A stretch of DNA of 64,000 nucleotides from Sulfurimonadaceae bacterium (GTDB lineage: Bacteria > Campylobacterota > Campylobacteria > Campylobacterales > Sulfurimonadaceae). Positions within the stretch are counted from its first letter, which is position 1, and every line of letters begins with the position of its first letter. The notes below the pieces were generated by a model that had not been told where the DNA came from, made no database searches, and was given only the letters and a program-made list of their open reading frames with translations. The position numbers were made by a program, and so were the translations under genes. The DNA is taken from the NCBI GenBank assembly GCA_041571435.1, contig JBFFUI010000001.1:1-64000 (forward strand), written 5' to 3'. Of the stretch, positions 12,253 through 29,169 are shown in pieces.

Positions 12253-13035
12253 ATGATAAAAAAGATAAACCTCTTGGCTGTCCTGCTTTTGGCATGCTCG
12301 CCATTAGTATATGGAGACATTACAGGCAGTCCGCATGACTTATCAGGGAAAACAACTGGTGCTGTAGGTTCTGATGACAATGGCGAACTGTGTGTCTATT
12401 GTCATACGCCTCACGCCGCAAATACCGCTTTTGACGGTGCACCGCTTTGGAACAAGACCGCAACAGCTGGACTTGATTATATGATGTATGGAGCTACGGC
12501 TGTTAACACGGCCGGTGCAACGATCGCCAACACCGCAACAGCAACGACACCGGCAAGCCCTTCACTGGCATGTCTGAGCTGTCATGACGGTATCAGCGCC
12601 ATCGATTCGATCGTCAATGCACCTGGCTCTGGAATGGGTGCTTTGGCAGCAGGTACGGCTGGACAGAATATCGTCGATGCACTCACAACTGCATACGGTG
12701 GTAATATCGGTGGGACTCCGGGTACTGCAACTGCCGGTACGACCGTTGACCTTTCAAACGACCACCCGGTCTCCATCCCTTATATGGGAACCGGTGCTAC
12801 AGACAGTCCAGCCAGCCTCAGAGCGACAACTTTTGATCTCACTACATACGGAGACGGTGTTGCATGGGTAGGCGCAACAACGATTGCCGATCTTCTTCGC
12901 AACGGCAACGTGGAGTGCGGCAGCTGTCACGATCCACACAATGGTGGTAAGGTACAGGGAACAGATACGGAAGTCAACTTCTTGCGACACTCCAATACAA
13001 ACAGTAACCTCTGTATTGGATGTCACGCGAAGTAG
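12253..13035 (+). CDS. Secreted tetraheme cytochrome c, OmcE-like
   Basis: ATG 12253 after GAAGGAG; signal peptide; HDLS, CVYCHTPH, PLWN, SLACLSCHDG, DLSNDHPV, ECGSCHDPH, FLR, LCIGCHAK-stop. Confidence 0.85.
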   Translation: MIKKINLLAVLLLACSPLVYGDITGSPHDLSGKTTGAVGSDDNGELCVYCHTPHAANTAFDGAPLWNKTATAGLDYMMYGATAVNTAGATIANTATATTPASPSLACLSCHDGISAIDSIVNAPGSGMGALAAGTAGQNIVDALTTAYGGNIGGTPGTATAGTTVDLSNDHPVSIPYMGTGATDSPASLRATTFDLTTYGDGVAWVGATTIADLLRNGNVECGSCHDPHNGGKVQGTDTEVNFLRHSNTNSNLCIGCHAK

Positions 13036-13215: not shown

Positions 13216-14307
13216 TTGGTGAGAACCGTTTTTCTTTTTACAGTAATGCTTTCCGTCTTTCTTTTTCAGGGATGTGCGACAAAACCTGAGGCTGTGCAAC
13301 AGCCCAAGATCGTCTTTCCATCTTATCCGGATGAACCGAAGATAGCGTATGTCGACACCTACCGGGGTGAGTCACAGAGTGAGAACGACGCCAGTGCCTT
13401 AGATCTCTTTCTGGGAGAAGACAAGGGTAGAAAGACAATCTCACCAGTCATCGTAAAACCCTACGGCGTCGGCCTGCAAGATGGCAAACTCTATGTCGCC
13501 GACACAGGTACCGACACGGTCTTCATTATCGATGAAAAGAGCAAAGAGGTCTCCTACATCGGCAACAATCCAGTCGGCAGGCTTGTCGCTCCCGTGGCCA
13601 TTGCTTTTGACAGTAACGGAACGGTCTATGTCAGCGATGCACGTCAGAAAAGGGTACAAGGCTACAACAAAGTAGATGGCAAGTTGAAGTTTGTGCTAGG
13701 AAGTCGGCTGGATTTTGTCCATCCCACCGGCATCGCGATCGATAAAAACTTAAACCGGCTCTATGTCGTCGACACCAAGGGGCACTGCTTTAAAGCATTT
13801 GACATTGCGACGAAAAAACTTCTTTTCACCATCGGCGAGCGGGGGAGAGGTGACGCACAGTTCAACTTCCCGACCAATGTCGCCGTCGACCAACGCAACG
13901 GTAATATCGTCATTGTCGATACACAGAACTTCCGTGTTCAGATCTTTGACAAGGAGGGCAAGTTTATACGCCGTTTTGGAAAGATCGGCGATAGACCCGG
14001 AATGTTCGCACGCCCCAAAGGTGTCGGCATCGATACGGAGGGACATATCTACGTCAGTGATGCCGCCTTTAACAATGTCCAGGTCTTTAATGAGACGGGA
14101 GAGCTGCTGCTCTACTTCGGCGCCGCCGGCTACACACCAGCGACGTTTCGTCTTATCGCAGGAATCTTTATCGATGAGACCGACAAGATAGCGATTGCTG
14201 ACGGCTTCAGCGGACGGGTACAGACCTTTCAGTACCTGAGCAAAAAGTGGAAAGCAGCGCACCCCGATGAATATAACGAGCTCAAAGAGTTCAAACCAGA
14301 AATTTGA
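13216..14307 (+). CDS. NHL-repeat six-bladed beta-propeller lipoprotein
   Basis: Lipobox FQGC; repeats PxGIAxD...YVxD...RVQxF. Confidence 0.9.
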   Translation: MVRTVFLFTVMLSVFLFQGCATKPEAVQQPKIVFPSYPDEPKIAYVDTYRGESQSENDASALDLFLGEDKGRKTISPVIVKPYGVGLQDGKLYVADTGTDTVFIIDEKSKEVSYIGNNPVGRLVAPVAIAFDSNGTVYVSDARQKRVQGYNKVDGKLKFVLGSRLDFVHPTGIAIDKNLNRLYVVDTKGHCFKAFDIATKKLLFTIGERGRGDAQFNFPTNVAVDQRNGNIVIVDTQNFRVQIFDKEGKFIRRFGKIGDRPGMFARPKGVGIDTEGHIYVSDAAFNNVQVFNETGELLLYFGAAGYTPATFRLIAGIFIDETDKIAIADGFSGRVQTFQYLSKKWKAAHPDEYNELKEFKPEI

Positions 14308-14321
14308 GATGAAGGAATAAT

Positions 14322-15254
14322 GTGAAAATACTCTTTTTCATGCTCTTGCTAAACTGTTTTGTTGCAGCTGGAGAAGTCCTGCTGCCCGAAGCAACCGTTG
14401 CCGTCGTTAACGGCATCGCCATCTCAGAAGATGAGCGGGACAAAGAGGTCGGTAAACTGATGCCCAAGGCCTATTTTCATTCTACGTTGAATGACGAAAA
14501 GCTTAAAGTCCTGCAAGAGAAGGCAACTGCATCCCTTATAGAGAAAACACTTTTGTATCACTATGCGCTCTCCCAGGATCTGCGTGTCACTGATACTGAG
14601 ATCGCAAAGGTAATTGCGAGACTGCAAGCGGCATATGGCTCCAAAGTGGAACTGGATCGGGCCATACAACGTCTGGGGTTTACACCCGAAGCGTTCAAGA
14701 CCGCAATCAAGAAAGACGAGGTCCTTAAGAAGCTGTACAAAAAAGAGATCGAAGCAAGCTATAGTGATGAAGAGCTCAAAACGTATTACGAGAAGAACCG
14801 GTACAAATTCAAAGAGCCCGAGAAGATCAGGGTGCGTCTTATCTATGTCAGAAACGACCCTAAAGATCCTGACGGAAAACAAAAAGCAAAGCTTAAGATC
14901 GAAGAGGCCTACAAGAAGCTGCAAGAGGGTGCCCTCTTCGCCGACGTTGCTGCAGCCCATTCCAATGCGATGAGTCGTATCAATGGTGGGGACATGGGTT
15001 ATCTTCACAAGGGACGGCTTGATGAAGCGGTCGAGGAGATAGCATTTGCCATGAAGGCGGGCGAGATGAGCAAGGTAATCGAAAAAGATGTCGGGTATTA
15101 TATCGTCAAGGTCGAAGATAAAAAAGTGTCAAATCAGTTGTCCTTCGACATCGTCAAAGAAAGCCTCAGAAAAGAGTTGAAACAGCGAACAGAAGACGAA
15201 CGAAAAAGTACGCTGCTTGCCAAATTAAAAGCAACCGCCGTGATCATAAAGTAG
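14322..15254 (+). CDS. PpiC/SurA-type peptidyl-prolyl isomerase chaperone
   Basis: VAVVNG..I, FADVAAAHS...GGDMGY...AFAMKAGEMS...GYYIVKV. Confidence 0.9.
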   Translation: MKILFFMLLLNCFVAAGEVLLPEATVAVVNGIAISEDERDKEVGKLMPKAYFHSTLNDEKLKVLQEKATASLIEKTLLYHYALSQDLRVTDTEIAKVIARLQAAYGSKVELDRAIQRLGFTPEAFKTAIKKDEVLKKLYKKEIEASYSDEELKTYYEKNRYKFKEPEKIRVRLIYVRNDPKDPDGKQKAKLKIEEAYKKLQEGALFADVAAAHSNAMSRINGGDMGYLHKGRLDEAVEEIAFAMKAGEMSKVIEKDVGYYIVKVEDKKVSNQLSFDIVKESLRKELKQRTEDERKSTLLAKLKATAVIIK

Positions 15255-15263
15255 TAAAAAACG

Positions 15264-17051
15264 ATGAAACATACGCTTCTTGTCCTTTTGTCGCTCTGGT
15301 ATGCAGGCTCTTACTTGCTGCATGCCGCCGACTATCCGGACAGAGGCTTCTATGGCAGCTTGAATTTTTACTATATCGATGACAAATACGAAACAGGGCA
15401 ATTCTATAACGCACAGCAGGACTTTGTACAGGAATATAAGCTCGGTTACATCGGTAACATCTACAGTCCCCGTCTGCTCGACTACACCCTAGAGGGGCTT
15501 TTTCGAATCGAAGACATCAAAACGCAGAACACGGGCAGCGAAGGCAAGACAAATATCAAGAGCCAAGACTACAAGATCAACATGAACTTCATCAAAGAGA
15601 CCAACTACCCTTTTACTGTCTACGCACAAAAGACCGACCGACCGGTCTCTACCATCTACAGCACATCAAGCACACGATATGAGCAGGAGCTAGAGCGCTA
15701 CGGTCTTCAAGGGGCATTGAAGTTCGATCTCTTTACCGTTGCGTACGGGGCCACCAGACAAAAGAGTCTCTATGACCGTCTCTTTACCTACCAGGAGATA
15801 GAGAGCGACCTCTACAAGGCATCCATACGTCGCAGCAAACAAGCCTACAGTTACCAGTTGGGCTACAGCCACCTAGAGCGCAATGTCAACACCACGACAC
15901 TTACAGACAGCAACATCTCGACCAACGAAGTCGATGATACCGTGGACTTCACCTATCGATGGAAGATCTCGGATACACTGACCTTCAACTCTGATGCCCG
16001 CTATACCGACAGCGAATACTACAAATACAAGACGACGATAGCCAACCTTTACCTGCGATGGCGGCCCAAGAAACAGTACAACGGTAGCATTGCCGTAAGC
16101 GGCAGCCATACCGACCACTTTAGCGATACGAATGACACCAGGATCTATTCTGAGACCGTCGACACCTTGGATGTCTCTCAGATGTTCAGCTACATGCCGA
16201 CATCAGACCTGACCTTCACCGAGAACATCGGCTTCCATACCTATAAGACAAGCGTTGTCGAAGGCGACAATGCCAATCTTAGGCTTGGTGCCCACTACAA
16301 CAAGCAGCTCACCCAAGACACCAGAGTGCGCATGTCGGGAAGCTTTGATACGCTTACAAACGAGACCCGTAGGAAGCCGACGCTTACCAATGATCTCAAT
16401 GGGACGACGAGACGAAATAGCTATACCCTCGATGCCCGTGCCACAGTGACCGAAAAGTTGCCTTCACTAAGGTCAACACTGGATGTCGGCGGGAACTACT
16501 ACATGGTGCGGACCTCACTGGATGAGAAGCGCGACCGCTACAGCGCCAACCTCGCGTTTGCCTCGCAACTGACAAGCGGATTGCGCAACAGGTTTGATGC
16601 AAGCTATCTCAATGAACAGGGGCGCGCTATCTTTCTGCGAAACAATGTTGATGAGTTTGTCTACCGCTCTGTCATCCGGACCGACATCAGCGAATACCTT
16701 GACTATACGACCCGTCTTGGCGTTAAAGGACGGGTAACAGGAAAACTGGGACTGCGCTATTCGGATATTGAGAACGATGGGCTTCACATAGAACGGATCG
16801 TACCACGGGCGGACCTGACCGTAAACTACCGCTTTTTTCAGCGGCTGATCGTTGCAGCCGGTGCCCATGCTGACAGGGATTTGAGCTATAATTATATGAA
16901 TTACTCCGGCAATGCAAGCATCAACTACAGTATACGTAAAACCACGTTTAGGATGGGCTATCAGTATTATAAAACAGAAAGAACTGATGACCTGTTCTTC
17001 CCCGATTATGAACGCACGCGGTTTGAGATAAAATTAACACGGACATTTTAA
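15264..17051 (+). CDS. Outer-membrane beta-barrel protein
   Basis: Signal peptide; Tyr/Thr/Ser-rich alternating strands; C-terminal beta-signal RFEIKLTRTF. Confidence 0.75.
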   Translation: MKHTLLVLLSLWYAGSYLLHAADYPDRGFYGSLNFYYIDDKYETGQFYNAQQDFVQEYKLGYIGNIYSPRLLDYTLEGLFRIEDIKTQNTGSEGKTNIKSQDYKINMNFIKETNYPFTVYAQKTDRPVSTIYSTSSTRYEQELERYGLQGALKFDLFTVAYGATRQKSLYDRLFTYQEIESDLYKASIRRSKQAYSYQLGYSHLERNVNTTTLTDSNISTNEVDDTVDFTYRWKISDTLTFNSDARYTDSEYYKYKTTIANLYLRWRPKKQYNGSIAVSGSHTDHFSDTNDTRIYSETVDTLDVSQMFSYMPTSDLTFTENIGFHTYKTSVVEGDNANLRLGAHYNKQLTQDTRVRMSGSFDTLTNETRRKPTLTNDLNGTTRRNSYTLDARATVTEKLPSLRSTLDVGGNYYMVRTSLDEKRDRYSANLAFASQLTSGLRNRFDASYLNEQGRAIFLRNNVDEFVYRSVIRTDISEYLDYTTRLGVKGRVTGKLGLRYSDIENDGLHIERIVPRADLTVNYRFFQRLIVAAGAHADRDLSYNYMNYSGNASINYSIRKTTFRMGYQYYKTERTDDLFFPDYERTRFEIKLTRTF

Positions 17052-17056
17052 GGAAT

Positions 17057-18067
17057 ATGATGAAGATTTTTTTGTGGATAGGCCTCGTTCTGATGACAAC
17101 AGAAAGTCTGCAGGCTAAAGCAGCCGAAAGACTAGTCTGGCCTGCGGCACCGGACCCGGCCAGGATCGAATATCTCTCAGCCGTGACAACGGCCAAAGAC
17201 ATAGGGATAAAAAAAGGTTTTTTTTCGAAGATCAGCGATTTTCTTTTTGGGGATGAAGAGAAGGGACTGAACGCACCCTTTGGAATCCACGCCGATGCAC
17301 AAAAGGTCTATGTCACCGATATCGGCGCCAAGACAGTGACGGTTTTTGACAAAAAAGAGGAGGAAGTCATCACAATAGAAGGGCCGAAGGAGAAGCGCTT
17401 TCTCTACCCTGTCGATGTTGTTTCGGACAGCAAAGGCAATATCTATGTTTCCGATTCGGTGCTGGCTAAAGTCTATGTCTTTGACAGTGACGGGGACTTC
17501 ATTCGCACTATCGCACCCAAAATGCTGCAAAGACCCGTCGGTATCGCTATCAGTGCGGATGGCAAACGGCTTTACATAGTCGATGCACTCGCCAGTCAGA
17601 TCCATATGACGACATTAGAGGGCAAATATGTCCGTTCCATCGGGCGTAAAGGCAGTGGTCAAGGGGAGTTTAACCGGCCGACCTATATCGATGTCGGCAT
17701 CGATGGCAAGATCTATCTCTCCGACTCGATGAACCACTGTATTCAAGTACTCGACAGTGAAGGCAACTTTATCCGTACCTTCGGCCATCTGAGCAAGAAC
17801 ATCGGTGGCTTTGGAAGTCCGCGCGGTATTGCCATCGACAGCGACGGCAATATCTATGTCAGCGACACGCTTTTCAACGTGATCCAGATCTTCAACCCTG
17901 ATGGGCAGCTGCTGATGCTCTTTGGGCAGTACGGCAGTGAACGCGGTGCCTTTGCACTTCCTGTCGATATCTCGATTTTGCCGGATAACACCATCTTTGT
18001 CAGTGACACCAACAACCGACGTTTTCAGCTCTTTAAGCGGCTGGATCCACCAAAAGCGAGGAGATAG
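17057..18067 (+). CDS. NHL-repeat beta-propeller protein (second paralog)
   Basis: VWPAAPDPARIEY N-terminus parallels VFPSYPDEPKIAY of 13216; NHL repeats. Confidence 0.9.
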   Translation: MMKIFLWIGLVLMTTESLQAKAAERLVWPAAPDPARIEYLSAVTTAKDIGIKKGFFSKISDFLFGDEEKGLNAPFGIHADAQKVYVTDIGAKTVTVFDKKEEEVITIEGPKEKRFLYPVDVVSDSKGNIYVSDSVLAKVYVFDSDGDFIRTIAPKMLQRPVGIAISADGKRLYIVDALASQIHMTTLEGKYVRSIGRKGSGQGEFNRPTYIDVGIDGKIYLSDSMNHCIQVLDSEGNFIRTFGHLSKNIGGFGSPRGIAIDSDGNIYVSDTLFNVIQIFNPDGQLLMLFGQYGSERGAFALPVDISILPDNTIFVSDTNNRRFQLFKRLDPPKARR

Positions 18068-18069
18068 CA

Positions 18070-20142
18070 ATGCGATTTATAATTTTGTGCGTGTTTGGTA
18101 TGCTGATGTTCAGCAGCGGCGAGCTTTCAGCTTCCATCGTGAACACAAAGCACAACCTCTCCGTCACCAATACGGCAGGGACTATCAAGGCACAGACGGA
18201 GACAGAACTCTGTGTATTCTGCCATATCCCGCACCAGGGAAGGCCCGATGGTAAACCACTGTGGAACAGGAGTATGCCGGCATCGGCTTATACGATGTAT
18301 GACAGTGACTATCTGCGACGCATGGGCTATGCCCCTGTAGAACCCGATCTCGGCATACTGAATGATACCCCGGGTGCCTTGTCACGCCAGTGTCTCAGTT
18401 GTCATGACGGCACCGTCGCTGTTGGCGCCATCTACAAGCTTCGAAGGGATTTTCTGGGTGCCGGTATCGTTCCTATGGACGGGGTCGAGACAGACGGCAC
18501 CATCCCTGCGACCTCGGCAGCATTTCTCGGAACAGACTTGACGATGCACCACCCCGTCGGCATAAAGTACGATCCGACCGTGACGAAAAGCTTTGACATC
18601 GGTGAACGGACGATGGAGCTTCTGACCCTGCCGACTGCGCCGCTCAAACTTTTCCAGTATAACGGTGAAAACTATGTCGAGTGCTCCTCCTGCCATGACC
18701 CCCACAAAGACAACACAATGTTTTTGCGGGTCGATACCGGTGCCAACCATGCACAGAACATCGTCACGACCTGTACCTCCTGCCATGACAAGGACGGTTG
18801 GACGGGAAGTGTCCACCAGACAGCGACCAACACCTATACAGACCCTGCCGTCCTCGCCGACTACGGAACCAACAAAGTCGCAGACCTGGGCTGTGCCAAC
18901 TGCCACACGCCGCACAATGCAGAGGGGGTTCCTTATCTCAACAGAAAGGTACAGGGCAACACCTGTTTTCAGGGGGCTGCTTCTGACATAGCCGGTGCGG
19001 CTTGCCACGGCGTAGGCGGTGCGAAAGATATCGAGACGATCCTCAACCGCGCCTACACCCATCCGGTAATCGCAAGCAGTGACCCCGCGGATCCGAAACA
19101 TACTAACCTGGATGTACTTTATGGTACTGGTATTGTCGATCCTAATGGCGGTGCCGGCATCGACTGGGCGACCAACAAACATGCGGTCTGTATGGACTGT
19201 CATAATCAGCATCAGGCACAGCCCGGTACCCATGCTCCGGACGGACAGTGGTATCCTAACCCCGGAACATCGACAAATACCGTTTCCAATGTACTGAAGG
19301 GAGTTCCCGGCGTCGAGCCGACATGGCCGACAGAGTGGACACAGCCAATGACATTTACAACCCTTGCCTCGGCGGAAAAAGAGTACCAGATCTGCTTTAA
19401 ATGCCACTCCTACTGGGGAATCGGAAGTGCGACCGGCGGTGTGAACGACGGCGGGCATGTCTCCCCGAGTGATAATGTAACGCCGATGACCGATGTGGCA
19501 TGGGAGCTGAATATCAACAATAAATCGGGTCACCCTGTTGTTGTCAGTTTGTTAAATCGTGTAGGCTCATACGCGCCCAAAGAATTGGATGCCATACAGC
19601 TTCTTTCACCATGGACGGAAAACCCTGGCGCCAACCAGATGTACTGTTCGGACTGTCACGGTGCGGATAATGAACTGGGCGGTGACCCGAAAGGGCCGCA
19701 CGGCTCCGACCTGAAGTATATCCTCAAAGGGACCAATCAGTTCTGGCCAGCCAATGCCAACGGCAATCTCTACACGATGGACGACATCAATGTTGCGGGG
19801 ATCGACCCGGGCGATGACGGACTTTTCTGTAAAAACTGTCACGACATCGCTCGTCCGCACACAGACTGGTCAACACAAATGTCTGGAAAAGGCTTTCAGT
19901 GTGTCGAGTGTCATGTAACGGTACCCCACGGTTCACCGGTATCCAGGCTTCTGGGATATGCAAATTTCCCGTCACCGTACAACTACAACGGCAACAGTTT
20001 GAAGATGGACGGCTATCGTAAAAGTATCTATACCGACCTGAACAACAAAGATGTATATTCACCGAATTGTGGCGGTGGAAACGGCTGCCACAATAACGAT
20101 GACAGTGCCAACGGTGCCTATGATGCCAACCCATTCCCGTAA
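18070..20142 (+). CDS. Multiheme cytochrome c: N-terminal OmcE-like domain plus C-terminal multiheme region
   Basis: Mature N-terminus SIVNTKHNLS; 10 CxxCH plus CX12CH (CFQGAASDIAGAACH) and CX5CH (CGGGNGCH). Confidence 0.85.
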   Translation: MRFIILCVFGMLMFSSGELSASIVNTKHNLSVTNTAGTIKAQTETELCVFCHIPHQGRPDGKPLWNRSMPASAYTMYDSDYLRRMGYAPVEPDLGILNDTPGALSRQCLSCHDGTVAVGAIYKLRRDFLGAGIVPMDGVETDGTIPATSAAFLGTDLTMHHPVGIKYDPTVTKSFDIGERTMELLTLPTAPLKLFQYNGENYVECSSCHDPHKDNTMFLRVDTGANHAQNIVTTCTSCHDKDGWTGSVHQTATNTYTDPAVLADYGTNKVADLGCANCHTPHNAEGVPYLNRKVQGNTCFQGAASDIAGAACHGVGGAKDIETILNRAYTHPVIASSDPADPKHTNLDVLYGTGIVDPNGGAGIDWATNKHAVCMDCHNQHQAQPGTHAPDGQWYPNPGTSTNTVSNVLKGVPGVEPTWPTEWTQPMTFTTLASAEKEYQICFKCHSYWGIGSATGGVNDGGHVSPSDNVTPMTDVAWELNINNKSGHPVVVSLLNRVGSYAPKELDAIQLLSPWTENPGANQMYCSDCHGADNELGGDPKGPHGSDLKYILKGTNQFWPANANGNLYTMDDINVAGIDPGDDGLFCKNCHDIARPHTDWSTQMSGKGFQCVECHVTVPHGSPVSRLLGYANFPSPYNYNGNSLKMDGYRKSIYTDLNNKDVYSPNCGGGNGCHNNDDSANGAYDANPFP

Positions 20143-20151
20143 GATCCGGTC

Positions 20152-20673
20152 ATGAAATCATTTGTCCTGGGGATCTCTGCTTTACTTATCTTTGCAGCAA
20201 CGCTGCATGCCAACGAGGACAAAGCCGTCAAGCACGCCCTGCTCAAATACAACTACGGCATCATCAAGATGGCTAAAAGCGGCGAGACCGAATTTTTTAA
20301 AAGTTTTGTCAACAAGGAGATCGTGACCAAGCTGATGCTTTGGGTCAAGGCCTGGCAGGATAACAACCTTGTCATGCTTGCCGAGATCAAAGACTTCCGG
20401 TTCGGCCCTATCAACTACAGCGGAGACCGTGCTACGATAACGACGATGGAGAACTGGAACTTCACCTATGTCGACATCGCAACGCGAAAAGTGGCAGCAG
20501 AGAAGGTCACCATGTTATATAAGATGCGCTACACGCTTCAGCAACAAAAAAACGGCTGGATGATCGTCGACATCCAGCATCTCGATGAGAAGCAGGTCAA
20601 TGTACCGGAGGACCATCCCGCGACAGGAAAAGGTGTCTCTGCCTATCCGCAAAGCGACATTGCGACACACTGA
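20152..20673 (+). CDS. Secreted hypothetical protein, possible NTF2-like fold
   Basis: Signal peptide; ATITTMENWNFTY...MRYTLQQQKNGWMIVDI pattern. Confidence 0.6.
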   Translation: MKSFVLGISALLIFAATLHANEDKAVKHALLKYNYGIIKMAKSGETEFFKSFVNKEIVTKLMLWVKAWQDNNLVMLAEIKDFRFGPINYSGDRATITTMENWNFTYVDIATRKVAAEKVTMLYKMRYTLQQQKNGWMIVDIQHLDEKQVNVPEDHPATGKGVSAYPQSDIATH

Positions 20674-20719: not shown

Positions 20720-23700
20720 ATGATTATTAAAAAGGTCTGGTCACTGCTGATCTCAATGAAGCTGATGCTGCTTCTGTTACTGCTCTTTGCCATCGCGAGC
20801 GGCGTAGCAACGTTCATAGAAAATGATTACGGCGTCAACACGTCATGGGCGCTTGTCTACAGCACACGGTGGTTCGAGGCCATCCAACTGCTTCTCGGTA
20901 TCAGCATCATCGGCAATATTTACCGATACAAAATGTACAAAAAGAAAAAATGGCCCGCCTTTATCTTTCATCTCGGGTTCCTGGTCATTCTGGTGGGTTC
21001 GGGTATCACCCGCTATTACGGTTATGAAGGCGTTATGCACATCCGTGAAGGCAACAGTGAACACCGCATCCTCTCATCCGATGCCTTTTTGCAGATTACT
21101 GCAAAGAAAAACGACAACACCTATTATGCAGAAGATATCGTCTACATATCAGAACTCGGCGGCAGAAAATTTCAAAACAGCCTGAAGGTAGACGGAAAAG
21201 AGGTTGTCGTTACATATAAAGACTTTATCGACAAGGCCGTAAAGACCGCCGTCGAAGATCCGGCCGGAACACCGATCGTCGTGTTCGTGATCCCGACACC
21301 GCAAGGACCCGAAAAGTATTTCTTGCGCAGCGGGGAGTCGGTTGACGTCGGACCATTGGCCGTCTATTTCGACAAGGCCCCGACTACCGACAAACCGTTT
21401 ATACGCTTTTTCAGCGACAACGGGGAGATCCGTTTCGTCTCCAATGTACCAATCCCCTGGATGAAGATGATCAACCGTTCGCAAGGTGTCTATAGTGCGA
21501 ATACCGATTATGAACTCGATGCGCGGCGCATGTACACCATCAACGGCGTGCAGCTCGTTACCAAATCAGTCCTCAACAAAGGATCTGTCAAAGTCGTAAG
21601 CGAAGCGAAATACAAAGAGTCCATGAAGATGCAGATGAAGATAGATTCTCTCTCTGCACTGGTCGTGGATGTGGCCTATGACGGCAAACATAAAGAAGTG
21701 ACACTTCTGGGCAAAGGCAAACGGTACAAAGGCTTTACCGAAAACCTGACTATCGGCGACGTTACCCTCTCTCTTGAATGGGGTTCCAAGACCATAAGGC
21801 TACCTTTCTCACTCTACCTTCGTGACTTTATCCTGGTAAAATATCCCGGCTCGATGAGCCCGTCGTCGTATGAGAGTCATGTGACTTTAGTTGATGAAGC
21901 AAACGGTATCCAGGAGGGGCACAGGATCTACATGAACCACACGCTTGACTACGGCGGTTTTCTCTTTTTCCAATCCTCTTACGACAAGGATGAGCAGGGA
22001 ACGATCCTCTCGGTCAACCATGACCCGGGCAAGTGGCCGACCTATGTCGGCTATATCCTTCTTGCCATCGGTATGTTTTTCAACCTGCTGAATCCTAACA
22101 GCCGTTTCGGAAAACTGGCACGTACCAAGTACGAATACCGCGCCAATGCGCTGCTGCTTGCGGTACTTCTTGCAGCGCTGTTCTATACGGAACCTCTCTC
22201 GGCATCTTCGAGTCAGCAAGCGGCACCGGTCGATATGGAAGCGCTTCTTGATGATGTCAAAAAAATCGACCGCGGGCATGCCGACCACTTTGCGACAATG
22301 CTGGTGCAAGGACGTGACGGACGAATCAAGCCGCTCGACACACTTGCCATAGACCTGCTCAACAAGATATCAGGCAAAAACAGTCTGCATGGTATGAATC
22401 ATAACCAGGTTATCTTGGGAATGGCCACCAAACCCGATGCATGGAAACAGATCGAGATGATCAAGGTATCGCATCCGAAAGTCAAAGAGATACTCGGGAT
22501 AAAAGCGTCACAGAAGCGTTTTGCCTATGCTGTAGCTTTTGACAAATTCGGGCAGTACAAGCTTGGTGATATAGCCGAAGAAGCGCTTCGAAAGCGTGCG
22601 GCGGAAAGAGACAAATACGATAAGGATCTGATCAAAGTGGATGAGCGGGTCAATATCGCCTACATGATCTATTCCGGCCGTTTTATGACCGTGTTCCCGA
22701 TGGAAGGCGATCTTGACAACAAATGGTACTACCCGGACCATGCGATGAAGAACTTCCCGCCAAAGTATCGCAATGAAGTGTATGAACTGCTCAAGAACAA
22801 CAGTGCAGGGTTCTCAAAAGGGCTCAATGACGGTGACTGGAAAATGGCTGACAGTGCGATAGATGCCATCAAGGCATACCAGTACAAGTATGGTTCGTCG
22901 ATCATCCCGGAGGCAACACTGATCAAAGCAGAGCTTCTCTACAATAAGCTGGATATCTTTGAACGCCTTTTCCCGATCTATCTGATAGCCGGATTTGTTT
23001 TGCTGGTGCTGATCTTTGCCCGTCTCGTCAAGCCGGCGCTTAATTTGAAGATAGCCATGCGTATTGTTCTGACTATCTTCGTGGCCGGTTTTGTAGCACA
23101 TACACTTAGCCTTGGCCTGCGATGGTACATTGCCGGACATGCCCCATGGAGCAACGGATATGAGGCGATGCTCTATATCTCCTGGACGATCATCCTCGCT
23201 GGTATCCTTTTTGCGCGAAGTTCCGAACTGGCATTGGCGACGACAGGTATCTTTTCGGGGATTGCCCTCTTTGTCGCACACCTGAGCTGGCTTGACCCGC
23301 AGATCACCACGATGGTCCCGGTACTCAAGTCCTACTGGCTGACTATCCATGTCTCCATCATTACCGCAAGTTACGGTTTTCTTGGCCTAAGCACACTCCT
23401 CGGATTTGTCTCGTTGATCTTCTATATGATGCTCAACAATGAAGCAAAGCGCGAACGTATCAGTGTGAATATCCTCGAATCGACCCGTATCAGCGAGATG
23501 TCGATGATCGTCGGCCTCTCACTGCTCACGGTAGGTAACTTCCTGGGCGGCGTCTGGGCAAACGAATCATGGGGACGCTACTGGGGCTGGGATCCAAAAG
23601 AGACCTGGGCACTGGTGACCATTCTGGTCTATGCCTTTGTCATCCACATGCGTTTTATACCGATGCTGCGTTCCAACTTTGTCTTCAATGCCATTTCGGT

Positions 23701-23893
23701 TGTTGCCTACAGTTCTGTTATAATGACCTATTTTGGTGTCAACTACTATCTCTCCGGTCTGCACTCCTATGCCGCCGGTGATCCTGTACCCGTTCCGGTG
23801 TGGGTCTACTATGCAGTGACCGTAGTTGCCGCCGTTATTATTGTTGCATCGTTTAACCGTAACAAATTGATGCAGATAAAACCCGTAAATTGA
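20720..23893 (+). CDS. ccsA: Fused system II cytochrome c synthase (CcsBA/NrfI type)
   Basis: ResB-like N-terminal half (IFHLGF, IYMNHTLDYGG..FFQSSYD); WWD motif WANESWGRYWGWDPKETW; GLHSYA. Confidence 0.92.
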   Translation: MIIKKVWSLLISMKLMLLLLLLFAIASGVATFIENDYGVNTSWALVYSTRWFEAIQLLLGISIIGNIYRYKMYKKKKWPAFIFHLGFLVILVGSGITRYYGYEGVMHIREGNSEHRILSSDAFLQITAKKNDNTYYAEDIVYISELGGRKFQNSLKVDGKEVVVTYKDFIDKAVKTAVEDPAGTPIVVFVIPTPQGPEKYFLRSGESVDVGPLAVYFDKAPTTDKPFIRFFSDNGEIRFVSNVPIPWMKMINRSQGVYSANTDYELDARRMYTINGVQLVTKSVLNKGSVKVVSEAKYKESMKMQMKIDSLSALVVDVAYDGKHKEVTLLGKGKRYKGFTENLTIGDVTLSLEWGSKTIRLPFSLYLRDFILVKYPGSMSPSSYESHVTLVDEANGIQEGHRIYMNHTLDYGGFLFFQSSYDKDEQGTILSVNHDPGKWPTYVGYILLAIGMFFNLLNPNSRFGKLARTKYEYRANALLLAVLLAALFYTEPLSASSSQQAAPVDMEALLDDVKKIDRGHADHFATMLVQGRDGRIKPLDTLAIDLLNKISGKNSLHGMNHNQVILGMATKPDAWKQIEMIKVSHPKVKEILGIKASQKRFAYAVAFDKFGQYKLGDIAEEALRKRAAERDKYDKDLIKVDERVNIAYMIYSGRFMTVFPMEGDLDNKWYYPDHAMKNFPPKYRNEVYELLKNNSAGFSKGLNDGDWKMADSAIDAIKAYQYKYGSSIIPEATLIKAELLYNKLDIFERLFPIYLIAGFVLLVLIFARLVKPALNLKIAMRIVLTIFVAGFVAHTLSLGLRWYIAGHAPWSNGYEAMLYISWTIILAGILFARSSELALATTGIFSGIALFVAHLSWLDPQITTMVPVLKSYWLTIHVSIITASYGFLGLSTLLGFVSLIFYMMLNNEAKRERISVNILESTRISEMSMIVGLSLLTVGNFLGGVWANESWGRYWGWDPKETWALVTILVYAFVIHMRFIPMLRSNFVFNAISVVAYSSVIMTYFGVNYYLSGLHSYAAGDPVPVPVWVYYAVTVVAAVIIVASFNRNKLMQIKPVN

Positions 23894-25312: not shown

Positions 25313-26851
25313 ATGATAACAGCGATCTTCGGTTACCTTAAAAAGTACAATGTCGCTGCCCTGTTACTTACGCTCGTATTGAGTATCTCCTACCTCGCTT
25401 TTTACAACTACGACAAACAAAAAGATCTCCTACTCACTCAGATGAAAAGTGACACCGAGCATATCGTAAGCTCGATCTCATCAGCGATGCAGCGTTTTCA
25501 CGACATCAAGTCGACGATGAACCTTCAAAAACTGGTCAATGATGTCTCGTTCGGCCTTGAGATCTTCGAATTTCGCTATATGGAACCCAACGGTATTATC
25601 AAGAACTCTATGTTCAGCGAAGAGATCGGCAAGCAACACAGCGCCGAAAGTTTCAAGGAGGTCCTCCAGCGAAAACGAAAGTTGAAAACTTTCTTTTTCG
25701 AGGTACGTGATTATGTAAAGGTCATGGCCATCTATTATCCGATCTATCGCAACAAAAGGCTGATCGGCATCATCGATCTGGCCGTCGATGTCTCTGAATA
25801 TGCAGTGATCACCGGCCTTGATACCGATTTCGCACTGACACGCCGAAAAGTCGACATTTTAAACCTTCTTAAATCGATCGAAGGTTCCATAGAAAACAGC
25901 CTTGCTGTTTTTGAAGAGACCGATATGCACAACTTTTTGCGTGCTTATGTACAGTCTGCAACCAATATACTGGAAGTGTCACAGATCGATTCCGACAAAA
26001 AGGTCCTGATCAGTAGCAATAACAAAATAATCGGGAAGACCTTGAAGGCCGACAAACTGCTCCCTCTCGAACTCATCGAGCACGAAGGACACCAAGCCTA
26101 CAGAACAGTAACTGATATTGGCCAACTTAATGGGGATGAGAACAGCAAATTGATCATATTGATCGATGCCGCTCCCTATGAAGCCAACAGACGTCAGCTC
26201 TTGCAGACAGCCCTGATCACCTGTGTCATCGCGCTTATTATAGCCCTCTTTATTGCCAGATCGATCTACTACTTTGCACTGGAACGCTCACGCAGCGAGA
26301 AAGAGCGCCTGGAACGTCTGGTCAAAGAGCGTACGCATGAGATAGAGTTGTTAAGCAAGACCGATGGCCTCACTGGTCTGTGGAACCGCGGCTACCTCGA
26401 AGAGATGCTCGAGATGGAGTATAAGCGCGCGCGACGCTACATGCATGATGTTTCGATAATGCTCATCGACCTTGATCACTTTAAGCGTATCAACGACACC
26501 TATGGGCATATGGCCGGTGACGAAGTACTACGTCAGGTCAGCCAGCGTATCCGATGCTGTGTGCGCGAAACGGACTTTGTCGGACGTTACGGCGGTGAGG
26601 AACTGGTCATCATCCTGCCTGAGACGACAATTGTAGCAGCCCAGACAATTGCCGGCAACATTCTTAAGCGCATTGCGGAAGAGCCTGTCGTATTTGAATC
26701 GCATATCATTGATGTCACGACAAGTATTGGTCTGAACAACTTGCGTCTCACCCATAACAATTACCAGGCAGTCTTTGCTGAAACCGACGAAGCACTGTAT
26801 CGTGCAAAAGAAGAGGGACGCAACAGGGCCGTAGTCTTTAAGGCCGATTGA
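25313..26851 (+). CDS. Sensor diguanylate cyclase with periplasmic domain
   Basis: Two TM helices around a ~260-aa periplasmic region; DGLTGLWNR, RETD I-site, GGEEL. Confidence 0.9.
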   Translation: MITAIFGYLKKYNVAALLLTLVLSISYLAFYNYDKQKDLLLTQMKSDTEHIVSSISSAMQRFHDIKSTMNLQKLVNDVSFGLEIFEFRYMEPNGIIKNSMFSEEIGKQHSAESFKEVLQRKRKLKTFFFEVRDYVKVMAIYYPIYRNKRLIGIIDLAVDVSEYAVITGLDTDFALTRRKVDILNLLKSIEGSIENSLAVFEETDMHNFLRAYVQSATNILEVSQIDSDKKVLISSNNKIIGKTLKADKLLPLELIEHEGHQAYRTVTDIGQLNGDENSKLIILIDAAPYEANRRQLLQTALITCVIALIIALFIARSIYYFALERSRSEKERLERLVKERTHEIELLSKTDGLTGLWNRGYLEEMLEMEYKRARRYMHDVSIMLIDLDHFKRINDTYGHMAGDEVLRQVSQRIRCCVRETDFVGRYGGEELVIILPETTIVAAQTIAGNILKRIAEEPVVFESHIIDVTTSIGLNNLRLTHNNYQAVFAETDEALYRAKEEGRNRAVVFKAD

Positions 26852-26915: not shown

Positions 26916-27944
26916 CTACTTCTGATGACAGCGTTGGCACACGTTAAACGGCATTGAGCCCTTCATTCTCAGAAGACTGATCCCGCTTGAACCATGGGGA
27001 TTGTGGCAGCTGCTGCAATAAAACTTTCTATGCGGTCGTGCCGGGTCCTTGTCGCCTTTAGTCGGATGGGCACCCGCGTTTCGTCCAAAGACAAAACTGG
27101 AAACAACATGCTTCCCGCTGGCTTTTTCCGCATGACAGGTCGTGCAGAGCTCCCATACCGGCTTACGCAGGAAAAACTCGTTGTCTGAACCATGCGGGTT
27201 ATGACAACGCTCACACCGTCCATCATTGACGGGTCCATGGACATAACGGTTATTATCCCACTTTTTGACTTTGTCATGGCACTTTTCACACACCTTGTTT
27301 ACGGGGTCGCGCACCAAATATTTTGATATGTCATCAGACGGCGTATCATAGGCGCCGAGTTTGCCGTCATGACAATCTGTACAGCGCCAGTTTATGGTCG
27401 GCGCATGGCTGTTGCGCTTTGACACCAAGCTTTTGTGGCACGTGTAGCATGTCGTCTGTGACACATCGTCAAAGACCTTGTCTCCGGTGGGAATGTTGGA
27501 TTTCATATTATGGCATGAAGCACAGACTTTCTCCTTTTCGTCGACATGGAAAAAGCCTTCTTCGTAGGCATCAGGATCGTCATCAAACCCTTCATAAAGT
27601 TCAGGCAGGAAGAAGATATGGCGTTGGGACTGCTGTACCTTGAGACCCTTAAGATAGTTCGTCACCGTAATGATGTTTTCACCCTTGTCAATCTTTATGG
27701 TCTTACAGTAGGTCTCTTTTTTCGGATCGGCTTTCAATTCGTAAGAACTGTTGTTGTCCACTTCAATCAGCACAGTATCTATATCATCAGCAGATGCTTT
27801 TACAACAATAGTGACAAGCTCCCCGTCATAACGAAGGTAGTCAGCAGGTGCCAATAGATCTACCGGCGCCAAAGGCTCTGCCGCCTTAGTGATTGCCATA
27901 GCAAGGCAGAAGAGGAAAACGAGTCTAAGAAGTGTCATATGCAC
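26916..27944 (-). CDS. Octaheme cytochrome c (doubled-CxxCH type)
   Basis: 8 CxxCH; HGPV...CERCHNPHGS pattern; N-terminal non-heme beta-rich domain. Confidence 0.88.
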   Translation of the reverse strand: MHMTLLRLVFLFCLAMAITKAAEPLAPVDLLAPADYLRYDGELVTIVVKASADDIDTVLIEVDNNSSYELKADPKKETYCKTIKIDKGENIITVTNYLKGLKVQQSQRHIFFLPELYEGFDDDPDAYEEGFFHVDEKEKVCASCHNMKSNIPTGDKVFDDVSQTTCYTCHKSLVSKRNSHAPTINWRCTDCHDGKLGAYDTPSDDISKYLVRDPVNKVCEKCHDKVKKWDNNRYVHGPVNDGRCERCHNPHGSDNEFFLRKPVWELCTTCHAEKASGKHVVSSFVFGRNAGAHPTKGDKDPARPHRKFYCSSCHNPHGSSGISLLRMKGSMPFNVCQRCHQK

Positions 27945-27945
27945 A

Positions 27946-29169
27946 TTACTTAAGGTTTACTTTCGGCGTCTCACGATCGTAATGACGTCGGGCATGACAC
28001 GCCGGTGCACACGAACCGCCTGTCGGTGTCTCGATATAACGGATCGGAAAGTCGATCTTGCCAAAGTGTGTCTTTTTGCGAAGGTGGTGCGGGTACTCTT
28101 TTGTACCATGGAAATCGTGACAGGCACGACATGTACGTCCTTTCTCTCTATCAACATGGACAAAGTGCATGTTTTTGTCGCCATTTCTAAAGTTGGTTGC
28201 AGTAAGCGTCTTTTCATCCTTGATCTTTTCGGGTTCATGACACTCGAAACAGATATAGTTCTTTTCATCGAATTTCTGATAGAAACTTCTCGGGAACGGT
28301 TTTTTAAGCATCCTCAGGTTGTTCGACCCGTGAGGATTGTGACAGGCGGCACAGTCACCCCAGAGAATCGGACCGTGCCAATCCGGGTTTTGCTCCAGAT
28401 GCTTCGCCATATTGGCCAGTTTATGCCCCTCTTCGTCTGTTGTCAGACTTTGATTGTGACAGCTTAGACAAAGATCTTTGGCCGTGTCTTTGACCAGGAA
28501 CTTTGGATTTTCGGAACCGTGGGGGTCATGGCACTCAAGACATTTACGCGGACGATTCAGTGCCCCATGTTTTGCCGTGACCGTATTGATCCATACCTCT
28601 TTGTCCGTATGACACATGACACAGAGGTCTTTCTTGCCGTCAGCCTTAAGCTGGTACTGGTGGTCCTCTGTATGCGGATCATGGCAGTTCGTACATTGGT
28701 CTTTAACCGGCGGGTGGATGTTGCTCGTCTTTTTCAGGAACTCGCCTTTTGCCTGGTGGCACGAGGTACAAAGCTCGTTGATACTTGATGCGACCAGCAG
28801 TTTAGCATTGTCCGATTCATGCGGATTATGACACGCCGTACACGCACCTGCTGCTACCGGCCCGTGAACGAACTTTTTGTCCCCCTTTTCTCCATGACAC
28901 ATGACACAAAGTTCAGGTGGTTCCATGACCAGTTCTACACCGCCTTTTGGATCCGTATGACAAACGGTACAGTCACCCCATTCGTATGGAGGGTGCACCA
29001 CTTTTTTCGGTGCACGCAACGCTGTCCCGAAAAACTTTTCATCCTCGGTCAGTACGACCTCTTTTGCTGCAGATGCATTTGTCTCAACCGATGCTGCTGC
29101 AAAAAGGTTTGAAGACAACAGCAGTAACCCCGCCCATTTTCCGATAGCACACATATATCTGTTTTTCAA
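27946..29169 (-). CDS. ~12-heme periplasmic cytochrome c (doubled-CxxCH type)
   Basis: 11 CxxCH plus terminal CX3CH (CAPACH); repeated HGP...CxxCHxPH-S units. Confidence 0.88.
   Translation of the reverse strand: MKNRYMCAIGKWAGLLLLSSNLFAAASVETNASAAKEVVLTEDEKFFGTALRAPKKVVHPPYEWGDCTVCHTDPKGGVELVMEPPELCVMCHGEKGDKKFVHGPVAAGACTACHNPHESDNAKLLVASSINELCTSCHQAKGEFLKKTSNIHPPVKDQCTNCHDPHTEDHQYQLKADGKKDLCVMCHTDKEVWINTVTAKHGALNRPRKCLECHDPHGSENPKFLVKDTAKDLCLSCHNQSLTTDEEGHKLANMAKHLEQNPDWHGPILWGDCAACHNPHGSNNLRMLKKPFPRSFYQKFDEKNYICFECHEPEKIKDEKTLTATNFRNGDKNMHFVHVDREKGRTCRACHDFHGTKEYPHHLRKKTHFGKIDFPIRYIETPTGGSCAPACHARRHYDRETPKVNLK

Follow-up and report, generated by a model that had tools for sequence, protein, structure and literature searches.

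In this study we focus on MHC690, a c-type cytochrome of 690 residues encoded in a gene cluster of the window (the whole stretch of DNA analysed, 64,000 nucleotides). Our best explanation, to which we give about an even chance, regards MHC690 as the large twelve-haem cytochrome in a nanowire cluster of the OmcE type, most likely serving as a cell-proximal adaptor at the end of the filament; an end-piece role of this protein is plausible. How cytochrome nanowires start and end, and how they are anchored and electrically coupled, is an open question (PMC13712944, PMC12307469), and the OmcE operons described in PMC13712944 show no anchor or tip candidate.

The sequence of MHC690 contains ten CxxCH motifs (Cys 48, 108, 205, 235, 275, 374, 442, 526, 587 and 611), one CX12CH motif with the sequence CFQGAASDIAGAACH, and one CX5CH motif, CGGGNGCH, a count that agrees with the tally of a preliminary description of the gene. 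The sequence shows neither a membrane anchor nor a lipobox. The AF2 model of MHC690 was calculated from an alignment of 112 sequences and has a pLDDT of 90.4; a model calculated from a 29-sequence alignment had a pLDDT of 42.5 and was dropped. The sequencing runs containing this stretch of DNA are of marine metagenome DNA only, and no RNA run is found among those listed.

Residues 22-243 of MHC690 are a complete OmcE module. At the sequence level, MHC690 matches the OmcE filament chain 7tfs_A (PDB 7TFS, Geobacter sulfurreducens) with E 2.8e-25, and the OmcE-module profile (E 5e-34) covers OmcE residues 10-232. At the level of the fold, comparison of the MHC690 model with the 7TFS chain in VIA gives Z 16.1 and an rmsd of 2.5 A over 184 of 202 residues, with model residue 27 pairing with residue 30 of the mature OmcE chain at the start of the match, and Foldseek matches the model to the OmcE chain with E 6.7e-10. 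Residues 22-243 also have sequence and fold in common with 9yuq_N, the second solved OmcE-type chain. Members of the wide family from Dissulfurispiraceae and Desulfuromonadales match 7tfs_A as well (E 2.6e-24 and 4e-24), and both match 9yuq_N. The OmcE type of the N-terminal domain had been proposed from the sequence, together with a parallel to the small protein encoded at 12253-13035, and the parallel holds too: the two proteins are 28% identical in a BLASTP alignment of 265 columns (E 4e-18), and hhalign of their families gives a probability of 100% and E 1.6e-42 over 200 columns.

The module of MHC690 and OmcE each carry four haem motifs, four extra His and an N-terminal NTKH(D/N)LS arm, and their genes are found in the same type of cluster. 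In the module H28, H55, H161, H212 and the four motif His are kept, and the N-terminal arm with His28 is invariant (112 of 112 sequences). OmcE terminates just after haem 4, whereas MHC690 continues with eight further haem sites. With its 690 residues and 12 sites, it lies outside the OmcE-type small subunits, which have about 200-260 residues and a C-terminal CxxCHxK. It has 13 spare His, not 12, and, unlike OmcE, it offers no free haem-4 end for more polymerisation.

The genes that surround MHC690 are listed in Table 1. According to PMC13712944, the minimal OmcE cluster consists of two multihaem cytochromes, two propellers, OmcE and a barrel; the cluster of MHC690 matches it in that it encodes a small OmcE-like protein, NHL propellers and a large presumed barrel, and MHC690 would be one of the 'two multiheme cytochromes' of that paper. 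The presumed barrel gene, two genes upstream of MHC690, has no Pfam or NCBIfam match, and its place in the cluster is as PMC13712944 describes for OmcE clusters. The family of the small OmcE-like protein has eight invariant His for four haems and a C-terminal CxxCHxK in 20 of 20 homologues. The window copy of the 173-aa protein has no Pfam match, while its homologue L017:9366-9860 matches Pfam ARC6-like_IMS with 23.4 bits (cut-off 22.8); its gene always lies between those of the cytochrome and CcsBA, the gene order in Campylobacterota being cytochrome-u173-CcsBA.

Table 1 Features of MHC690 and of the surrounding gene cluster, in window coordinates.
Feature	Position	Strand	Basis or remark
Small OmcE-like tetrahaem protein, 260 aa, presumed filament subunit	12253..13035	+	7tfs_A E 2.9e-20, full length
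NHL beta-propeller protein 1	13216..14307	+	Pfam NHL E 6e-27; lipobox-like FQGC read from sequence
SurA-like PpiC-type peptidyl-prolyl isomerase	14322..15254	+	Pfam Rotamase and SurA_N families
Presumed outer-membrane beta-barrel, 595 aa, C-terminal Phe	15264..17051	+	Nearest Atlas clusters: outer-membrane beta-barrel proteins, 0.98 (lead only)
NHL beta-propeller protein 2	17057..18067	+	Pfam NHL E 5.8e-24; stops 3 nt before MHC690
MHC690 (name used in this report), 12-haem c-type cytochrome, 690 aa	18070..20142	+	ORF, motif count, family, AF2 model
Predicted Sec signal peptide, residues 1-21	18070..18132	+	Read from sequence; probable cleavage before SIVNTKHNLS
OmcE-type tetrahaem module, residues 22-243, haems 1-4, His 28/55/161/212	18133..18798	+	
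C-terminal part, residues 244-690, eight more haem sites	18799..20142	+	No solved sequence relative
Haem site 6, CX12CH, residues 299-313	18964..19008	+	Aligned with CxxCH/CX3CH/CX4CH/CX7CH/CX10CH of relatives
Presumed haem site 12, CX5CH, residues 667-674	20068..20091	+	Aligned with CX3CH of the wide family
Exported protein (u173), 173 aa, probably NTF2-like	20152..20673	+	Atlas SnoaL-like lead 0.91
Fused CcsBA (ResB + CcsA) cytochrome c synthase, cluster-linked paralogue	20720..23893	+	Pfam

The arrangement recurs across the family. In 49 of 51 loci the gene immediately upstream of the large cytochrome encodes an NHL protein. Of the 47 loci that extend for at least 6 kb to one side, 39 have a separate small OmcE-like gene; it is absent nearby in the other 8, which include both Desulfuromonadales loci. 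Among 19 loci whose cytochrome has no OmcE-part match (several are cut by contig ends), none has an NHL gene and one has a small OmcE-like gene; this co-occurrence, counted on loci that are not independent rows, suggests that the OmcE module and the gene for the small subunit are lost together.

Modelling of MHC690 together with the small protein, proposed in the preliminary description as a check, predicts that the two dock. The complex model, a heterodimer limited to the N-domain of MHC690 and 4 haems, reaches ipSAE 0.80 (runs 0.81, 0.78 and 0.80), against a best of 3 of 0.00 for the controls; 116 of 157 solved complexes attain the mark used for docking, as do 2 of 215 mismatched pairs. The pLDDT of the partners is at least 89, and at least 92% of the contacts are common to the runs. 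The modelled interface involves residues 169-171 and 248-260 of the small subunit and residues 22-33 and 45-64 of MHC690, so that the N-terminal arm and haem-1 face of MHC690 are predicted to pack against the small subunit at its haem-4 end. The modelled complex is similar to the OmcE filament structure, so its passing score may partly echo that structure, already known to the predictor; it shows likeness and not binding.

For residues 244-690, sequence searches give weak NrfA motif matches only and no solved relative, and Foldseek, run with this part inside the full model, finds no solved relative of it, a result that does not in itself point to a new fold. In VIA, residues 100-629 of the model align with MtrA, the decahaem wire in the MtrB barrel (6r2q_A, PDB 6R2Q chain A), with Z 8.2, a value within the range VIA calls common for best matches, and an rmsd of 4.7 A over 237 of 265 residues; the surface cytochrome OcwA gives Z 2.9. 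MHC690 would, like MtrA, be an elongated multihaem protein, and its gene is near that of a large presumed outer-membrane barrel; unlike MtrA, it has twelve haem sites and an OmcE-like N-terminal module. It is not a member of the MtrA/DmsE family, as the model TIGR03508 scores 27.2 bits, below its cut-off of 192.2. To see whether the C-terminal part might consist of two further OmcE modules, we used hhalign, whose scores are biased here by haem motifs: the small-OmcE profile matches residues 244-455 over only 27 columns around CxxCHTPH (probability 97%) and residues 456-690 with a probability of 19%, and module 1 aligns with module 2 over 115 columns (89%).

The motif His of all 12 sites are kept in 112 of 112 sequences from many phyla, and so are the motif Cys, save C673 (111 of 112) and C667 (93 of 112). 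The protein had been described as an OmcE domain fused to further haems; twelve haems are instead the conserved architecture throughout a huge family, which counts 3592 representatives at E <= 1e-30, and not the outcome of a local fusion. Neither do the two odd motifs stand for additional sites, both appearing as loop expansions of ancestral ones. In particular, the alignment places CX12CH at haem site 6 and shows it to be an ordinary CxxCH in which the loop between the cysteines has grown. C299, C312 and H313 are invariant (112 of 112), and the 120 closest homologues all have a long motif (X12 in 116, X13 in 3, X14 in 1). In 81 aligned rows of the family, the spacing at this site is X2 in 55, X3 in 2, X4 in 4, X7 in 1, X10 in 1 and X12 in 17, with no motif in 1. 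Lack of conservation of the atypical Cys pairs had been named as a finding that would speak against the preliminary description; the CX12CH pair is conserved and its position is an ordinary haem site in relatives, while in the CX5CH pair the final CH is kept and the upstream Cys varies. Haem binding at CX12CH would be expected from this positional homology to CxxCH sites.

Among the ORFs of the genome with at least two CxxCH, MHC690 is the only one with so long a CXnCH, and the term CX12CH was not found in the literature searched. In Wolinella succinogenes, MccA, which has a CX15CH motif, is paired with a dedicated system II lyase, CcsA1. MHC690 likewise is a multihaem protein with a conserved long CXnCH, and an extra cytochrome c synthase gene lies beside it as beside MccA in Wolinella, a Campylobacterota genome. 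MccA (4rkn_C) has no sequence or fold relation to MHC690, however (Foldseek E 5.7), and the long loop of MHC690 would be a stretched ordinary electron-transfer site and not an active-site haem as in MccA. SirA of Shewanella, treated in PMC6976685, also shares the conserved long motif in a multihaem protein. The nanowire cytochrome OmcZ has, like MHC690, one long-spaced motif, a non-canonical one at haem 1 (PMC9473688, which uses the term CX14CH); its sequence and haem packing are unrelated to those of MHC690, and it has no inter-subunit His.

In this lineage the haems are probably attached by the cluster-linked CcsBA paralogue, which would tolerate long loops. The cluster-linked copies form one clade (SH-aLRT 100 in trees of 18 and 15 rows). 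Of 151 genomes searched throughout the order, 9 have the MHC690-type cytochrome; these 9 and G060 contain CcsBA copies that share 53-62% identity with that of the window, the next best copy being 51% identical, and the second CcsBA of the genome, on contig 9, is 44% identical to the cluster-linked one. Furthermore, a fused cluster-type CcsBA lies beside 12 of 17 rows with X12 at site 6, against 0 of 64 rows with other spacings, and the paralogue clade crosses family boundaries along with the cytochrome. These last two observations, with the Wolinella precedent described above, argue against the view that the linked synthase serves capacity or co-regulation, a nanowire needing much haem attachment, and not a special need of long-loop motifs. 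To this view we nevertheless give a chance only a little below even. The cluster-type CcsBA cannot be a strictly dedicated lyase and would handle ordinary CxxCH, being the only CcsA-family gene in four genomes that are 99-100% complete (G099, G038, G126 and G113); the specificity of the MccA/CcsA1 pair thus does not extend to a paralogue that can be the only synthase of its genome. A search for a signature of the clade found one separating column (F601 vs A), no indels and an unchanged WWD motif. Distant relatives with CxxCH at site 6 are followed by separate ResB and CcsA genes (L017, L019 and L021), and the synthase linkage is therefore not bound to the long loop alone; in Desulfuromonadia, housekeeping resB and ccsB flank OmcE clusters (PMC13712944). 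Two MAGs with CX12CH have no cluster-type CcsBA, one having a standalone CcsA (G151) and the other a housekeeping-type CcsBA (G154).

The CX5CH motif is, on the same alignment evidence, site 12, derived from CX3CH. This spacing is found in 47 of 47 wide-family sequences, and PMC11492766 lists CX3CH among the known haem motifs. In the close clade only the final CH is fixed: H674 is retained throughout (112 of 112) and the final CH as a whole in 111 to 112, while the upstream Cys is variable in distance or absent. Among 115 full-length close homologues, the spacing is X1 in 19, X2 in 12, X4 in 42, X5 in 16, X6 in 1, X7 in 4, X8 in 1, X9 in 5, X11 in 1 and X12 in 1, with a single Cys in 10 and CxDKH in 3. 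Such a spread, together with the alignment of C667 in only 93 of 112 sequences, would fit a site that in this clade is not a two-thioether haem site, but either a one-Cys haem or a place where H674 is an axial ligand elsewhere, leaving 11 haems; given the uniform CX3CH of the wide family and the retained final CH, we find this doubtful.

Outside the motifs, 13 His are conserved for 12 haem sites, 11 of them in 112 of 112 sequences and H249 and H620 in 111 of 112. PMC13712944 proposed that an anchor should hold one His beyond twice its haem number, and the count in MHC690 takes this 2n+1 form provided that haem is bound at site 12 and that all of the conserved His serve as ligands.

In the adaptor role that we favour, MHC690 would be exported by Sec and its haems then attached by system II. 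Its arm with His28 and its haem-1 face would sit on haem 4, the C-terminal end of the small subunit, as between filament subunits, which is what the controlled complex model and the comparative data point to. Its own haem-4 end would be continued by its own eight haems; with this end occupied, only one end of the filament is open to MHC690, which could not be an internal subunit. The MtrA-like C-terminal haem wire may reach through or to the barrel.

MHC690 could instead be a stand-alone envelope electron carrier, periplasmic or barrel-bound like MtrA, that works with the NHL propeller outside filaments and owes its OmcE-likeness to common descent only. The size of the family, which far exceeds the known nanowire producers, and the 8 loci that miss the small OmcE-like gene would fit such a carrier. 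So would DFE_449 of Desulfovibrio ferrophilus IS5, likened to MHC690 by description only: it has twelve haem sites, lies beside an NHL gene, was found in the outer-membrane fraction and is predicted to be periplasmic (PMC5815863). Reduction of Fe(III) oxide continued after DFE_0448-0450 had been deleted (PMC9769857). We consider this role unlikely, since the invariant His28 arm, the predicted docking of the haem-1 face on the small subunit and the co-occurrence of the OmcE module with the small subunit gene all argue against it. Still more improbable is a distal tip or initiator, whose OmcE module would cap the outward end and whose eight extra haems would give a larger or more exposed surface for minerals or partner cells: the same docking model and one-ended logic fit it, as does the lack of a visible membrane anchor or lipobox, but the C-terminal part resembles barrel-threaded MtrA and not the surface cytochrome OcwA, and the gene is flanked by barrel and propeller genes.

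Beyond the adaptor role of MHC690 itself, members of the twelve-haem family could, in many phyla, be the terminal subunit so far missing from OmcE-type nanowires, plugging the filament via the barrel. Separately, the family would record a natural stretching of a haem c site, step by step, from CxxCH to CX14CH, enabled by a mobile and broadly tolerant CcsBA variant. We offer this wider proposal tentatively, well short of an even chance. The N-terminal arm of the family would supply the spare His that the last filament subunit lacks, following the 2n+1 rule proposed in 2026, and His249 would replace the arm of the next subunit at haem 4 of MHC690 itself. With its C-terminal wire through the barrel of the cluster, one protein would both end polymerisation and connect the filament to the periplasm.

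MHC690 is thus a candidate of the kind that the described OmcE operons do not show, with a gene inside the cluster, a full OmcE module, one spare conserved His and a predicted head-to-tail docking. Because the family is very large, the idea is testable in cultivable organisms; one homologue is assigned to Nitrosophilus alvini, a cultivable carrier of the cluster. Moreover, the two haem sites of variable spacing are a natural substrate series for the tolerance of system II synthases, and the cluster suggests that marine Campylobacterota that oxidise sulfur perform extracellular electron transfer.

The gene at 18070–20142 (+) encodes a 690-residue protein (hereafter MHC690) containing, as the preliminary description had stated, ten CxxCH motifs together with CFQGAASDIAGAACH (CX12CH, residues 299–313) and CGGGNGCH (CX5CH, residues 667–674). 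Across the whole 2.16-Mb genome, no other ORF with at least two CxxCH motifs has so long a CXnCH. The likeness of its mature end (SIVNTKHNLS, following a putative signal peptide) and first four haem motifs to the small OmcE-like protein encoded upstream was borne out by BLASTP (28% identity, E 4e-18), and profile-profile comparison of the two families gave a probability of 100% (E 1.6e-42). MHC690 matches the OmcE filament chain 7tfs_A with E 2.8e-25, and the small protein matches it over its full length with E 2.9e-20. An AF2 model of MHC690 computed from alignment A3 (pLDDT 90.4, pTM 0.90) returned 7TFS as the only Foldseek match (E 6.7e-10, target-normalised TM 0.75), and VIA-align superimposed model residues 27–240 on this chain (Z 16.1, rmsd 2.5 Å, 184 of 202 residues). 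MtrA of the Mtr complex came well above the remainder (Z 8.2, rmsd 4.7 Å, 237 aligned residues, model residues 100–629; OmcS Z 3.7, OcwA Z 2.9), a likeness we treat as a lead only since a Z of 8.2 is inside the range common for VIA-align.

The 120 best database homologues, whose source records name Sulfurimonas, Nitrosophilus and Persephonella, are 50–100% identical and mostly 680–720 residues long. A one-genome-per-species scan found at least 327 relatives across many phyla, from which 80 loci were retained, and a profile built from 112 sequences retrieved 3592 representatives at E ≤ 1e-30 among 1.84 billion. The typical relative has 550–600 residues, 11 CxxCH and a C-terminal CX3CH, and members from Dissulfurispiraceae and Desulfuromonadales match both 7tfs_A (E about 1e-24) and 9yuq_N, a further chain of OmcE type. 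From these motif counts and matches, the twelve-haem layout with a front OmcE module is the usual state of the family; the OmcE domain described earlier is present, and its fusion is no local event.

The gene lies within a tight row on a single strand (see table), in which the 595-residue protein found no family in Pfam and NCBIfam searches. Among the 80 loci, whose counts are not independent because the rows are mutually related, the cytochrome has an OmcE part matching that of MHC690 in 61. Of these, 51 have enough upstream sequence, and 49 of the 51 carry an NHL gene immediately before the cytochrome; 39 of the 47 with 6 kb or more to one side also encode a small OmcE-like protein as a separate gene. 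The 19 loci without this match, several of them cut by contig ends, have the upstream NHL gene in none and the small OmcE-like gene in one. MHC690 is shown to be a conserved cytochrome of the twelve-haem type, bearing an OmcE module, and to belong to an OmcE-type cluster; an envelope electron carrier independent of filaments is a rival reading. OmcE homologues are reported from Campylobacterota and Aquificota in PMC13712944, according to which OmcE operons show no anchor or tip candidate.

Coordinates of the gene row, its neighbours and related features (L-numbers denote loci with relatives of MHC690)
Feature	Coordinates	Strand	Remark
Small OmcE-like protein	12253–13035	+	first gene of row
NHL propeller	13216–14307	+	second gene
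SurA-like PpiC isomerase	14322–15254	+	third gene
595-aa protein, C-terminal Phe	15264–17051	+	nearest Atlas clusters are outer-membrane barrels (lead only)
Second NHL propeller	17057–18067	+	ends 3 nt 5′ of MHC690 gene
u173, 173-aa exported protein	20152–20673	+	3′ of MHC690 gene
Fused ResB-CcsA synthase CcsBA	20720–23893	+	3′ of u173
DUF4136 protein			closes the listed row, after CcsBA
GGDEF diguanylate cyclase, membrane-bound	25313–26851	+	Pfam E 2.1e-47
Multihaem cytochrome	26916–27944	-	8 CxxCH
Multihaem cytochrome	27946–29169	-	11 CxxCH and CX3CH (CAPACH)
Extra tetrahaem paralogue	L083:7993–8682; L084:7680–8444; L086:10969–11655; L007:1623–2285
Five-haem protein	L054:5214–5771; L071:5971–6660; L055:6226–6795; L046:139–798
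960-aa cytochrome ORF	L011:9986–12868		Persephonella MAG
u173 homologue	L017:9366–9860		Nitrospiraceae

In several related clusters the first NHL gene and the isomerase gene are separated by an extra OmcE-like tetrahaem paralogue (about 220–250 residues, first motif CIWCH) that is absent from the window. In many wide-family clusters the barrel gene is directly preceded by the gene of a five-haem protein (185–229 residues), judged lipoprotein-like by sequence in L054 and L071; this protein probably represents the other of the "two multiheme cytochromes" of the minimal OmcE cluster (PMC13712944), and its gene is absent from the window's cluster. In two genomes, G126 (L090) and G113 (L091), with L089 and L092 as further loci, the large cytochrome has left the cluster and adjoins a five-haem OmcE-like gene. 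The cytochrome ORF of L011 extends into u173-like and monohaem-cytochrome-like sequence, probably through a frameshift or assembly error, a genuine fusion being possible. Between the nanowire cluster and two opposite-strand cytochrome genes, the GGDEF cyclase hints at c-di-GMP control. Both of these cytochromes gave DmsE-family matches below threshold; genes resembling them, with the same CAPACH motif, lie close to the cluster in L084 and L085, so that they may share one system with it.

The CX12CH aligns with an ordinary CxxCH of the wide family, at the sixth haem site. The 81 aligned rows form a series of spacings: X2 in 55 (wide family), X3 in two (both Desulfuromonadales), X4 in four (Chlorobi- and Bacteroidota-type), X7 in one Nitrospirae MAG, X10 in one Zixibacteria MAG and X12 in 17 (the MHC690 clade), with no motif in L036; 116 of the 120 closest homologues have X12, three X13 and one X14. 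Together with the invariance of C299, C312 and H313 (112 of 112), this series is strong indirect evidence that the site binds haem and that its loop was lengthened stepwise. The counterpart of the CX5CH in wide-family alignments is the C-terminal CX3CH (47 of 47). Spacing at this site in 115 full-length close homologues is X1 in 19, X2 in 12, X4 in 42, X5 in 16, X6 in one, X7 in four, X8 in one, X9 in five, X11 in one and X12 in one, with a single Cys in ten and CxDKH in three. Conservation of the long-spaced Cys pairs therefore holds for the CX12CH; for the CX5CH, the close clade fixes only the final CH, and an eleven-haem protein is the rival count. On the alignments, it is well supported that both motifs are stretched ancestral haem sites.

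The earlier proposal that MHC690 joins the filament through its OmcE module agrees with modelling of the mature small protein, with four haems, against MHC690 residues 22–243, which gave an ipSAE of 0.80 (0.81, 0.78, 0.80) against three controls that reached 0.00 at best, with partner pLDDT at or above 89 and no less than 92% of contacts common to the runs. Of 157 solved complexes 116 attain the tool's mark, as do 2 of 215 mismatched pairs. A like filament is already solved, so the pass may echo that structure, and the model indicates likeness, not binding. The predicted contact is head-to-tail, the C-terminal haem-4 region (248–260) and DH loop (169–171) of the small protein facing the N-terminal arm (22–33) and haem-1 region (45–64) of MHC690. 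The small family conserves 8 His per 4 haems, and OmcE filaments need one His supplied by the adjacent subunit (PMC9473688 and PMC12307469). The twelve-haem family conserves 12 motif His and 13 further ones (11 in 112 of 112; H249 and H620 in 111 of 112), that is, twice the haem number plus one, as PMC13712944 proposes for an anchor. His249 lies ten residues past haem 4, and we infer that it stands where the arm of the next subunit would come. MHC690 would dock on the haem-4 end of the filament and act at one end only, its own haem-4 end being taken up by its C-terminal haems. A cell-proximal adaptor, possibly acting via the barrel, seems more likely than the rival role of filament tip.

The haems of MHC690 would be attached by system II, with aid from the cluster CcsBA. 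The source genome encodes CcsBA twice, the copies sharing 44% identity. MHC690-type cytochromes occur in 9 of 151 genomes of the order, the source genome included, and a CcsBA 53–62% identical to that of the window is found in exactly these genomes and in G060, whose copy lies at the start of a contig (next best 51%). Five loci keep the row from small OmcE-like gene to CcsBA intact, and elsewhere it is divided among contigs; the cytochrome of G126 and G113 is relocated, with u173 and CcsBA remaining directly 3′ of the second NHL gene. In two trees the cluster-linked CcsBA group together as a single clade (SH-aLRT 100; 18 of 41 rows in the first, 15 of 46 in the second, which leaves out seven redundant rows), separate from the taxonomy-following copies and the roughly 900-residue forms, and the fused cluster type shares the locus in 12 of 17 X12 rows versus none of 64 others. 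Several observations speak against a strictly dedicated lyase: the cluster type is the sole CcsA-family gene in G099, G038, G126 and G113 (99–100% complete); of two MAGs with CX12CH, one shows just a standalone CcsA and the other just a housekeeping-type CcsBA; one alignment column only marks the clade; and unfused ResB and CcsA genes lie immediately downstream of distant family members whose site 6 is CxxCH. These four genomes belong to one family, whose members lacking the cytochrome carry the ordinary type; their general synthase looks to have been replaced by the mobile one. We read the cluster CcsBA as a mobile, broadly tolerant synthase accompanying the cytochrome rather than a CcsA1-like specialist, and a service to capacity, not specificity, is the rival explanation. 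The small exported u173, always found between the large cytochrome and synthase genes, may be a maturation helper. In L017 its homologue scores above the Pfam cut-off for ARC6-like_IMS (an NTF2-like family) and is followed by ResB and CcsA as separate genes.

The term "CX12CH" was not found in the literature searched, nor was a twelve-haem partner with an OmcE module described in the literature examined; DFE_449 of D. ferrophilus (12 haems, adjoining an NHL gene) may be a family member. MHC690 and its cluster represent a variation on two known systems, the OmcE-type nanowires and the long-loop haem motif with its linked synthase.
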